From: a virus
Lineage: Duplodnaviria > Heunggongvirae > Uroviricota > Caudoviricetes
Reading direction: 5' to 3' (one strand)
DNA: 16,516 nt
IMG/VR virus record: IMGVR_UViG_3300010261_000025
Location: 1-16,516 of that record
Shown here: positions 1,388 through 3,903 of the stretch, one piece after another
Layout: every line of letters starts with the position of its first letter
Numbering within the stretch: position 1 is the stretch's first letter
Position numbers and translations under genes: made by a program
The notes under the pieces: model-generated
Database searches by the model: none
Told to the model about the DNA's origin: nothing
The model's input: the letters and a program-made list of their open reading frames with translations, nothing else

Positions 1388-1479
1388 TTACGCGGATTAA
1401 CAATTCGTGCTCTTAATAATACCAGGCATATCAGGCTGATGAACGTAAAAAAACGTTTTACATCAGTAAGATTATTATA

Positions 1480-1499
1480 TACTGTAAATATAAACAGTG
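1480..1499 (+). promoter_or_regulatory. LexA (SOS) box overlapping a putative promoter for the downstream small ORF and dinI-like gene
   Basis: TACTGTAAATATAAACAGTG = CTGT-N8-ACAG with an AT-rich spacer, matching the LexA consensus TACTGT(AT)4ACAGTA. TTTACA (-35-like) at 1457-1462 and TATACT at 1478-1483 overlap it. Confidence 0.6.
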
Positions 1500-1540
1500 G
1501 TCATGTATACAGTATTGCTTGTGGTGTTATAGGAGGAAAG

Positions 1541-1729
1541 ATGCAGGACTATTTTTTGGAGTCTTTGAAGCTCCAGCGCATTGATTTTTTTCTTAAGCTT
1601 GTAGCGGCTAGTGAGTGTAGTGATGAAGAGAAGGGGCTGGCTCTGCAGTGGGTTTCTGAATTGACTGATGAACTCATGGCAAAAATCAGAACCCACGAAT
1701 ACAACCGCTCAATGGATGTCATCAGCTGA
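1541..1729 (+). CDS. Small hypothetical protein (62 aa) under the LexA box; possible Tum-like SOS-induced antirepressor by position (unverified)
   Basis: ATG at 1541 is preceded by AGGAGGAAAG, a strong RBS. The longer ORF-track start at 1439 would overlap the LexA box and promoter, so the internal start is preferred. Located like the 186 tum locus, right of gene A. Confidence 0.5.
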   Translation: MQDYFLESLKLQRIDFFLKLVAASECSDEEKGLALQWVSELTDELMAKIRTHEYNRSMDVIS

Positions 1730-1739
1730 GGTGACTTTT

Positions 1740-1973
1740 ATGCGCATTGAAATAATGATCGATAAAGAGCAGAAGATTAGCCAGTCTACCCTGGATGCCC
1801 TTGAATCCGAGCTTTACCGCAATCTGCGCCCCCTGTATCCCAAAACGGTAATTCGTATCCGCAAAGGTAGCTCTAACGGTGTGGAACTGACCGGACTGCA
1901 ACTGGACGAAGAAAGGAAGCAAGTGATGAAAATTATGCAGAAGGTGTGGGAAGACGACAGCTGGTTACATTAG
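1740..1973 (+). CDS. DinI-family protein
   Basis: Translation MRIEIMIDK...DALESEL...KQVMKIMQKVWEDDSW shares the DinI signature (MRIE start, DAL..EL, C-terminal I.Q..WE..D.W). ATG at 1740 is preceded by GAGGTG. It is 10 nt downstream of the preceding ORF, suggesting one SOS-regulated transcript. Confidence 0.8.
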   Translation: MRIEIMIDKEQKISQSTLDALESELYRNLRPLYPKTVIRIRKGSSNGVELTGLQLDEERKQVMKIMQKVWEDDSWLH

Positions 1974-1979
1974 GGTACG

Positions 1980-2014
1980 TTGCGGACGATAAAACTGGTT
2001 TTTACCGTTCGCAA
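1980..2014 (+). other. Long imperfect palindrome / RNA hairpin just downstream of the dinI-like stop (14-bp stem, one mismatch, one G-U, 5-nt loop); no U-tract
   Basis: TTGCGGACGATAAAAC-TGG-TTTTTACCGTTCGCAA; the arms are reverse complements apart from 1989/2005 and a G-T at 1985/2009. Confidence 0.4.
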
Positions 2015-2099
2015 GGTTGAGCAACGAGCCGTGCGAGGCGTTAGTTATGGATAAATTGGTTGCAGGGTGATATGTAAATAGGTTAATACGTAGCACTCT

Positions 2100-2135
2100 T
2101 CGAATAGTTTCGTATTTTTGTTGTCCTATAATCAT
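2100..2135 (+). promoter_or_regulatory. Candidate sigma70 promoter for the cargo operon (TATAAT at 2127-2132)
   Basis: A perfect TATAAT hexamer lies about 60 nt upstream of the ATG at 2194; the -35 region is weak. AT-rich context. Confidence 0.3.
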
Positions 2136-2193
2136 AAGATGACAGCTTCCATGCACCACAATCCGTGGCGTTTGAGGCATAAGGAGGAAAATA

Positions 2194-2393
2194 TGTCTGA
2201 ACTTCTGCGCAAAGTTCTCTCTGCACCAGGTAAGATTATGCAGGATGTCATCCGTCAGGATGTGCAACAGTCTGATAATAGTAAAATTATCACAGATGCT
2301 AATGGTGCGGCGACCTTAAACATGAACAATAAGCAGGTACGTGAATCAATGCGTGCCAGAATGGAAGAATTGGCTGCAAAACGACAAGGATGA
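2194..2393 (+). CDS. Hypothetical small hydrophilic protein (66 aa), first gene of an AT-rich cargo operon
   Basis: ATG at 2194 preceded by AAGGAGGAAAAT. Its stop TGA (2391-2393) lies 3 nt before the next ATG, indicating translational coupling. No recognisable motif. Confidence 0.5.
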
Positions 2394-2396
2394 GGA

Positions 2397-3179
2397 ATGG
2401 GACCCTTAGTTATCATGGTCGTCCTGGTTTGCGGGTTCTGGTACACCGAAAATCATTACCAGTCCCGCATCAGGCAAGCAAGAAGTAATGGTTGGAATTC
2501 CTATTTTTATGTAGCTATGCATGGTTGTAAGTTTGCTATTCAGGGGTTTACTCTGATGGCTGTTACATTCGTTACCTTGCTAGTTATAAGCTCAGTTATC
2601 AATGTTTTTGGTTATTTTTGGCCTAAGTTACATGTGGACTTTTATTCATGGCTCACAGACGTAAAGATAATGTCTTACCCATTGTTCTTTGTGTTGTCTA
2701 TGCTGCTTGCGGTGTTTATTGCTTATGACCAAGGTAACAATGCGCGAAGAGCAATAGAAAACGAAGAGATTCGTCAATCTGCATATCGCGAGATGGCAGC
2801 TCAAGATGGAATTGAGTCACTGTTAGTTCAGGCTATAGATGAAGGTAAGCTCATCTTTGTTACGCTAAAATCCAGAAAAGTTTACATTGGTTACGTAGCT
2901 GCTCCTCGGATGGAGCATCAGGAAACTCAGCATCTGGCTCTCATACCATACATCAGTGGTTATCGTGATAAAGATACGCTCAGATACCATGAGCAGCATC
3001 GTTACTATGAACTTTACCTTAGTAAAAATATTACAGCAGACTCAACTCCACTGAACTTAAATCATTTTAGGCATGTAATCCCAATGGATCAGGTTGAGAG
3101 TATTTCAATATTTGATACTGAAACTTATAAATCTTTCGAAGATTTTTCTACGCCTGACCAGACCAAAGTCACTGCATGA
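2397..3179 (+). CDS. Hypothetical membrane protein (260 aa): three predicted N-terminal TM helices plus a ~150-aa soluble C-terminal domain; candidate phage-encoded defence/abortive-infection effector
   Basis: Hydrophobic stretches PLVIMVVLVCGFWY, FTLMAVTFVTLLVISSVINVFGYFW and IMSYPLFFVLSMLLAVFIAY. Visibly AT-rich compared with flanking phage genes. Sits in the variable region between gene A and the cos/portal end. Confidence 0.6.
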   Translation: MGPLVIMVVLVCGFWYTENHYQSRIRQARSNGWNSYFYVAMHGCKFAIQGFTLMAVTFVTLLVISSVINVFGYFWPKLHVDFYSWLTDVKIMSYPLFFVLSMLLAVFIAYDQGNNARRAIENEEIRQSAYREMAAQDGIESLLVQAIDEGKLIFVTLKSRKVYIGYVAAPRMEHQETQHLALIPYISGYRDKDTLRYHEQHRYYELYLSKNITADSTPLNLNHFRHVIPMDQVESISIFDTETYKSFEDFSTPDQTKVTA

Positions 3180-3296
3180 CTATGCCGCATGAATATGCAT
3201 GATCGTTCGAGGATCGTTTTTGCTGAGGCCCGCCAGTTCTGGTGGGCTTTTGCTTATGTCATGCACCTGCATGAAAATCGCTACAAAAAGCGGGCA

Positions 3297-3315
3297 GGCG
3301 TGGCGGGGATACGAG
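3297..3315 (+). other. Candidate cos (cohesive end) site
   Basis: GGCGTGGCGGGGATACGAG in a GC-rich non-coding island. As I recall them, the 19-nt cohesive ends of P2 (GGCGAGGCGGGGAAAGCAC) and 186 (GGCGTGGCGGGGAAAGCAT) match in the first 13 nt. The location between the replication side and portal Q is as expected for cos. Confidence 0.35.
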
Positions 3316-3394
3316 CGCGCGCAAACATGTTTACTTGCAATTAATGTAGATATATTCTGAAATTGATAACTTACACATGAAAGGAGACGTGAGA

Positions 3395-3586
3395 GTGGCA
3401 AAATATACACCGGGCCAGAAAGTAAAACATGCAACAGGACATGGTCCAATCATGGTAATTGATCACTACCAATCGGCTACAATGGCAGTTTGTACGTGGT
3501 TTATTGGTGCTAAGAACCAGCGCGGAGTTTTTCATGAAGATACTCTAGTTTTATTTGTTCCAAAAGCTGAGAGTGATGATGAATGA
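3395..3586 (+). CDS. DUF2158 (YodC-like) small protein, ~63 aa
   Basis: GTG at 3395 follows AAGGAGA by about 8 nt; the ATG at 3377 is an alternative start. Motifs GQKVKHATGHGPIMVI and CTWFIGAKNQRGVFHEDTL resemble the DUF2158 pattern (G.KV.LKSGGP.MTV ... C.WF.G ... F). Confidence 0.5.
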   Translation: MAKYTPGQKVKHATGHGPIMVIDHYQSATMAVCTWFIGAKNQRGVFHEDTLVLFVPKAESDDE

Positions 3587-3845
3587 TTCTCTGATAAAAA
3601 TAGTTGACTGGATGGTTAATACCACTCGTTCTAATGGTGTGTTGTATCAGTCCGAGGTTGTTGAATTTCTAATCAATGACTTTGGGGACGAGTTCATCAA
3701 AACTAATGAGAATGGTAATTACGCTATAAGCAGTACTGTGCTAGCAAATTTTAGAAAGGCTAGCAAAGACGATATAGTTTGGGATCGTGAACAGTTAGCT
3801 TGGCGTTTACGCAATGAAAGCGATTTACCCGGACGGATGCAGTAG
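3576..3845 (+). CDS. Hypothetical protein (~89 aa), translationally coupled to the DUF2158 gene
   Basis: Tandem ATG ATG at 3576-3581 overlaps the upstream stop (GATGATGAATGA). The ORF ends at 3845 and is followed by a hairpin terminator. No recognisable domain. Confidence 0.45.
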   Translation: MMNDSLIKIVDWMVNTTRSNGVLYQSEVVEFLINDFGDEFIKTNENGNYAISSTVLANFRKASKDDIVWDREQLAWRLRNESDLPGRMQ

Positions 3846-3862
3846 AGATAATACAGATAATA

Positions 3863-3903
3863 GTGAACAAGCTGATAATTTCAACTTGTTCACTTCTTTT
3901 TTA
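3863..3903 (+). terminator. Rho-independent terminator (possibly bidirectional) between the small-gene pair and portal gene Q
   Basis: GTGAACAAGCTG-ATAATTT-CAACTTGTTCAC hairpin (about 11-bp stem, one mismatch) followed by TTCTTTTTTAT. Confidence 0.6.

Follow-up and report, generated by a model that had tools for sequence, protein, structure and literature searches.

A predicted LexA-controlled tumA-tumB operon in a P2-like prophage, very probably a split form of the phage 186 p95-tum module

Is the prophage studied here inducible by DNA damage in the manner of phage 186, and if so, which gene would carry the signal? The question is raised by a short region behind the replication gene of the DNA analyzed (16,516 nucleotides in total, called the window throughout). 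The window shares with phage P2 the virion and replication gene backbone, as well as the variable locus between gpA and gpQ; to our knowledge, P2 is not UV-inducible. A preliminary description of the region had noted a LexA box over a promoter-like sequence, followed by a 62-aa ORF and a DinI-family gene, and had predicted 186-like SOS inducibility.

The window belongs to a P2-like (Peduoviridae) prophage. At 1-1387, its plus strand carries the 3′ portion of replication gene A (Pfam Phage_GPA, 3.3e-73), which encodes a rolling-circle replicase and whose equivalent bears the annotation "replication endonuclease" in E. coli prophages with 97-99% identity. An intergenic region of 150 nt separates the end of gene A at 1387 from two short plus-strand genes, the operon as a whole covering 1457-1973, and portal gene Q is found on the opposite strand from 3901. 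Beyond the portal gene, ORFs of intact length are found where 96-98% identical prophages have annotated P2-type terminase, capsid, lysis and baseplate/tail genes. The operon is located immediately 3′ of gene A, at the cos-proximal end of the P2-like genome, and the order of gene A followed by the tum module is common to 186, PSP3, Fels-2 and DuoHS.

Our analysis indicates that this module is very probably an SOS-induction operon of a P2-like prophage of the Fels-2/DuoHS type (Felsduovirus-like), corresponding to a "split tum" form of the 186 p95-tum system. The module is already known and not new, a near-identical copy having been genetically tested in DuoHS. The sole gap that we found is one of annotation, as the small gene is either called "hypothetical" or not called. 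The positions of the individual features are listed in Table 1.

Table 1. Positions of the features of the predicted tumA-tumB operon and of the downstream cargo ORFs in the window.
Feature	Position	Strand	Remarks
-35 hexamer TTTACA of the p95-like promoter	1457-1462	+	5/6 match to TTGACA, 17 nt upstream of TACTGT
-10 hexamer TACTGT, left arm of the LexA box	1480-1485	+	Same hexamer annotated as p95 -10 in the phage 186 record
Predicted LexA (SOS) box TACTGTAAATATAAACAGTG	1480-1499	+	Single such site in the window
Half-box-like TATACAGTAT, right arm only	1506-1515	+	Within the 41-nt leader
Shine-Dalgarno AGGAGG for tumA	1531-1536	+	Read from the sequence
tumA, predicted 62-aa antirepressor, equivalent of the N-terminal half of 186 Tum	1541-1729	+	Remote homology and near-identical relatives
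Shine-Dalgarno GAGGTG for tumB	1728-1733	+	Read from the sequence; overlaps the tumA stop TGA (1727-1729)
tumB, 77-aa DinI-family protein, C-terminal half/truncated form of 186 Tum	1740-1973	+	Pfam DinI, alignment to Tum
Cargo ORF, 66 aa	2193-2393	+	Member of the PHROG 22451/3630 pair, function unlabelled
Cargo ORF, 260 aa, hydrophobic N-terminal half	2397-3179	+	Paired with the 66-aa ORF
Cargo ORF, 69 aa	3377-3586	+	Weakly DUF2158-like
Cargo ORF, 96 aa	3555-3845	+	DUF6953

Both structural elements of the preliminary description were confirmed: a near-consensus LexA box overlaps the -10 hexamer, and the 62-aa ORF and the DinI-family gene follow directly after gene A. The interval it gave (1456-1973) matches exactly the span from the -35 hexamer through the dinI stop. 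Across the 16.5 kb of the window, the pattern CTGT-N8-ACAG was found a single time, at 1482-1497. By itself, this loose pattern is weak evidence, with 0.24 occurrences expected and at least one present in 41 of 200 shuffled sequences. The complete 20-mer TACTGTAAATATAAACAGTG is three mismatches away from the perfect LexA palindrome TACTGTATATATATACAGTA, and a match with three or fewer mismatches was obtained in none of the 200 shuffles.

The 17-nt spacer between TTTACA and TACTGT gives the geometry of the annotated p95 promoter of 186, in whose record the -35 is annotated at the equivalent hexamer and the LexA site starts at the first base of the -10. An equivalent -35 (TTCACA or TTTACA) is present 17-18 nt upstream of the -10 in 186, ESSI2_ev015 and ESSI-2. 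In PSP3 the equivalent is TTCCCA (4/6 match), and none was seen at the corresponding spacing in the Yersinia phage. The promoter at 1457-1485 was not called by a generic promoter scan, because TACTGT matches TATAAT at only three of the six positions.

The upstream region was compared with those of seven relatives (Fels-2, DuoHS, 186, PSP3, the Yersinia phage, ESSI2_ev015 and Cronobacter phage ESSI-2), a set of eight phages that represents five Peduoviridae genera when the Felsduovirus-like type of the window is included. Each of the relative loci (3-49 kb) contains exactly one CTGT-N8-ACAG, located 18-41 nt upstream of the tum or tumA start, and TACTGT...ACAGT is the sole invariant block in the alignment of the eight upstream regions, the rest having diverged. 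Such an operator kept amid diverged flanks is the strongest in-silico argument for a functional site. From the architecture and this conservation, we infer that LexA occupies 1480-1499, which is consistent with the lexA(Ind-) result in DuoHS discussed below.

The same observations bear on the possibility that the match of the box is accidental or decayed, with the module left as an inert remnant in a defective prophage. This reading could draw on the frequency of the bare pattern in shuffled sequences and on the location of the immunity region outside the window. It is nevertheless extremely improbable, given the absence of the 20-mer match from all shuffles, the invariance of the box across diverged phages whose flanks vary, the intact state of both ORFs with their strong ribosome-binding sites, and the ORFs of intact length that occupy the P2-type structural and lysis gene positions in the rest of the window.

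A second LexA box at 1495-1514 was considered and rejected, as only the right arm is present, with GTGG on the left where CTGT would be required. The half-box-like TATACAGTAT in the leader is possibly vestigial. TACAGTAT is kept in Fels-2 and DuoHS, with variation in the bases just before it, and the leaders in the other genera measure 18-28 nt and lack the half-box-like element.

For the 62-aa ORF, the start at 1541 was favored over the upstream ATG at 1439 because of the Shine-Dalgarno sequence AGGAGG at 1531-1536 and because 1439 precedes the promoter. This ORF had been thought to encode possibly a distinct protein. Our comparisons point instead to the separately encoded N-terminal half of Tum: by remote homology to residues 7-43 of 186 Tum, the product is identified as TumA, a homolog of the N-terminal (antirepressor) half. 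In the alignment to Tum relatives that had been proposed as a check, BLASTP found no similarity of the ORF to 186 Tum or PSP3 TumA, the Fels-2 protein STM2728 was 98% identical, and a match to 186 Tum was obtained with profiles and shuffle statistics. The blank BLASTP result is explained by the short, diverged helices, which exceed the sensitivity of that method and make profile and shuffle tests necessary.

By hhalign, the Fels-2/ESSI-type set was matched to the Tum N-terminal set of 186, PSP3 and the Yersinia phage with a probability of 95.3% (E 2.1e-8) over residues 7-43. In Smith-Waterman comparisons of TumA against shuffled sequences, the score was reached in 1 of 5000 cases for 186 Tum and in 0 of 5000 for the Yersinia "tum protein". 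The alignment of TumA with the Tum N-terminal region is gapless and in one register. Among the PHROG families, TumA matches phrog_698 (3.6e-38), phrog_8554 (2.4e-8) and phrog_1993 (2e-3), and 186 Tum matches phrog_1993 (1e-22), phrog_8554 (1.4e-11) and phrog_698 (2.4e-5, residues 7-44). PSP3 TumA falls in phrog_1993, whereas the protein of the window falls in phrog_698, the two being about 15% identical. Identity to the N-terminal half of 186 Tum is about 20%, and the homology depends on profile methods built from few sequences. In a single-sequence AF2 model (pLDDT 91.6), TumA forms a two-helix hairpin (H2-23 and H28-61), with the conserved stretch running from helix 1 through the turn to the middle of helix 2.

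The DuoHS prophage of E. coli HS carries a module that is about 98% identical at the DNA level, with a LexA box, -35 and ribosome-binding site identical to those of the window. The gene order is also the same, with gene A followed by tumA (ECHS_RS04495), a 62-aa "hypothetical protein" directly 3′ of the replication endonuclease, and by dinI (ECHS_RS04500). The two tumA products are identical at 61 of 62 residues, the one change (T51S) being conservative. A few substitutions in the leader and a different cargo downstream of dinI distinguish DuoHS from the window. Induction of DuoHS by mitomycin C is abolished by deletion of ECHS_RS04495 ("tum"), as well as by a non-cleavable lexA(Ind-) allele, and the host SOS reporter still fires in the delta-tum strain (Phollow study, Nat Microbiol 2025, PMC12055606). 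The 186-like SOS inducibility predicted for the prophage of the window is thus backed by the published genetics of a near-identical copy, and would be expected to hold here as well.

These data also help to evaluate whether the 62-aa protein could be another SOS effector (for instance a toxin, an inhibitor of division, or a modulator of RecA or LexA) that merely occupies the position of Tum, with induction proceeding by another route. Besides the blank BLASTP comparison, such a reading would fit the finding that the ORF matches no Pfam, NCBIfam or PADLOC entry and that its PHROG families are labeled "unknown function". We regard it as very unlikely, however, because the profile-profile and shuffle statistics give the same register with the N-terminal half of Tum, and because deletion of the DuoHS gene specifically stops prophage induction and leaves the host SOS response readable by the reporter.

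The product of the second gene matches Pfam DinI above the curated cut-off and over 63 of 63 profile positions (6.6e-23), and also matches phrog_189 (1.5e-29). Its identity to 186 Tum, a protein of 146 aa, is 41% over Tum residues 71-145 (E 3e-24). Residue 71 is annotated in 186 as an internal GTG start that yields a truncated Tum that "modulates SOS induction", so that the separate DinI-like product of 186 begins exactly where the TumB alignment starts. The Fels-2 ortholog of tumB is annotated as similar to PSP3 TumB. Compared with the equivalog for chromosomal DinI (NCBIfam NF007893), the product scored 42.7 bits against a cut-off of 111, and on these scores TumB is classified as a phage DinI-family paralog and not as the host DinI ortholog. 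Taken with the position after gene A and the box over the -10, the 41% identity to the C-terminal half of Tum supports the earlier proposal of a 186-type LexA-controlled antirepressor operon.

The 186 form of Tum, in a single ORF, is not the arrangement found in the window, where the tumA stop (1727-1729) is followed after a gap of 10 nt by the tumB start at 1740, in the +1 frame. The two ORFs are read as the halves of 186 Tum in separate genes because TumA and TumB are homologous to its N-terminal and C-terminal parts, respectively. Lemire et al. (PMC3121763), citing Bunny 2002, describe 186 tum as split in Fels-2 and PSP3, where the upstream gene (tumA) encodes the antirepressor and the downstream one (tumB) a DinI homolog. 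In Fels-2, the two genes (STM2728/STM2726.1) follow gene A with a LexA box upstream, and are 97-98% identical to the window at the DNA level. In PSP3, the split tumA/tumB genes also follow gene A with an upstream LexA box, but they are in the same frame and 3 nt apart, in contrast to the +1 offset and wider gap of the window. The PSP3 record describes tumA as "similar to 5' end 186 tum; UV induction of prophage" and tumB as "similar to dinI and 3' end of 186 tum". A literature search for tumA/tumB returned unrelated papers only.

The dinI frame has no stop in the 25 codons before its ATG (1665-1739) and overlaps the 3′ end of tumA in the window, in Fels-2 and in DuoHS. A slip of the ribosome into the +1 frame, with the A5 run (1681-1685) at the tumA Lys48 codon as one candidate site, would produce a Tum-like fusion of about 143 aa, a size that matches 186 Tum (146 aa); there is no sign that it occurs. 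Chance alone would leave 25 codons open about one time in three, no recognized +1 slippery motif or stimulator was found, and tumB has its own Shine-Dalgarno sequence and ATG. Moreover, the PSP3 genes, which share a frame, are separated by a stop, and ESSI-2 and ESSI2_ev015 carry tumA with no adjoining dinI gene. A fusion of this kind is highly improbable, and was set aside as no signal for it was seen. The in-frame stop of PSP3 and the relatives with tumA only indicate that the two halves work as separate units, as in the split-tum reading that we favor.

Two possible RNA structures were rejected. A hairpin at 1718-1735, covering the tumA stop and the dinI ribosome-binding site, had been flagged as terminator-like, but folds no better than shuffled sequences (z -0.69). 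The stem-loop at about 1977-2016, after dinI, has no U-tract and was not better than shuffles. An Rfam scan of the whole window detected no RNA family.

DNA damage leads, through RecA*, to the self-cleavage of LexA, which is the established SOS pathway. In the lysogen, LexA bound to 1480-1499 would cover the -10 and the start region of the sigma-70 promoter, so that the operon would be off, and self-cleavage of LexA after damage would allow the tumA-tumB operon to be transcribed. TumA would then bind a 186-type CI, itself not cleavable through RecA, and block its binding to the operators. With CI off its operators, the early lytic promoter would fire and the prophage would be induced. TumB would be co-expressed and most likely modulates RecA and the SOS response, tuning the RecA filament and the SOS signal as annotated for the truncated Tum products of 186; the evidence for this role in 186 is at the level of annotation, and the role is not established even in model phages.

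The 186 Tum antirepressor has been described as preventing CI operator binding (Shearwin et al. 1998), and the antirepressor activity of PSP3 TumA is likewise taken from the literature. For the prophage of the window, we infer the contact between TumA and CI from homology, from the relatives and from the deletion phenotype in DuoHS. The immunity repressor gene itself is located outside the window. The nearest full prophage is that of E. coli COL60J, with 97.4% identity over 95% of the window, and it carries CI, CII and Fil genes of the 186 type. Its CI is 87% identical to that of DuoHS and 33% identical to that of 186 (E 3e-38), and with the latter degree of divergence the specificity of antirepressor for repressor has probably diverged also. 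At least three barely alignable clusters of TumA-type genes are found, and their CI partners have diverged as well, which suggests orthogonal antirepressor-repressor pairs.

The near-identical prophages of E. coli HS (L003, 16260-49001) and COL60J (L008, 2250-34212) are integrated beside rcdA (ybjK), and in HS the gene ybjL is on the far side of the prophage. In both, the integrase, CI, CII and Fil genes are found just upstream of the part equivalent to the window.

Compared with the other systems known, the module resembles p95-tum of 186 in its genome position and in the LexA box over the -10 hexamer TACTGT. It differs in that 186 Tum combines both units in one polypeptide where the window has two genes, in the length of the leader (18 nt in 186, 41 nt in the window), and in the DNA that follows, which is orf97 in 186 and an unrelated cargo in the window. 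A like logic is found in GfoA, GftA and FsoA of the Gifsy/Fels-1 phages and in AntC of N15, where a small antirepressor, itself kept off by LexA, inactivates a non-cleavable repressor. The Gifsy phages also have a dinI homolog in the antirepressor operon, as in the window. The Gifsy/Fels-1 systems are nonetheless lambdoid, with dinI first (the reverse order), and are likened here by logic and not by sequence. No record named P2 appeared among the matches listed in the TumA and DNA searches.

Downstream of dinI, the variable hotspot between gpA and gpQ contains a cargo block (2193-3845) of four plus-strand ORFs, with a GC content of 37-47% versus 51-62% in the flanks. The pair formed by the 66-aa and 260-aa ORFs corresponds to PHROGs 22451 and 3630, both labeled "unknown function", and no PADLOC or NCBIfam match was obtained for any of the four. 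These ORFs are candidate accessory or defense genes. Homology of the 260-aa protein to Orf97 of 186 was tested, and the two are not homologous. A perfect TATAAT at 2127-2132 precedes the 66-aa cargo ORF by about 60 nt, with a poor -35 and without a call by the promoter scanner; it may be the cargo's own promoter. An inverted repeat at 3862-3894, with a 14-bp stem (AGTGAACAAGTTGAAATTATCAGCTTGTTCACT), separates the cargo from the stop of the portal gene, which runs toward it, and is probably a terminator for both directions.

No terminator-like site was found on the plus strand over 1973-3507. A precedent for read-through exists in 186, where orf97 is on the p95 transcript past a terminator that is only partial; expression of orf97 blocks infection by 186. 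The hotspot literature that we checked for gpA-gpQ makes no mention of LexA, SOS or DinI. That the LexA-controlled transcript reads past the dinI stop into the cargo is a rather unlikely but plausible extension of the model; if true, accessory or defense-candidate genes of the hotspot would be partly DNA-damage-inducible.

The module predicts prophage induction by DNA-damaging agents (mitomycin C, UV, quinolones) through an antirepressor and not through repressor cleavage. What this means for the release of phage and the transfer of genes under antibiotic stress is already understood from 186, Fels-2, PSP3 and DuoHS. The practical value of the present analysis is the correction of the annotation of the antirepressor gene. 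With an 821-bp query, made up of the module and 227 nt of the flank downstream of it, we detected a DNA match in 1125 of 5426 complete E. coli genomes, or about a fifth, and matching DNA is also present in many phages of Klebsiella, Salmonella and Yersinia.

Several differences in the annotation of the TumA-type ORF were seen. In RefSeq E. coli genomes it is a "hypothetical protein", and in MK416009 it is named "levan regulatory domain protein". The records of ESSI-2 (L006, 1501-1680) and Klebsiella phage 4LV2017 contain the ORF with no annotated feature. Finally, in ESSI-2 and ESSI2_ev015, where tumA stands without a dinI neighbor, the LexA box is present as well.
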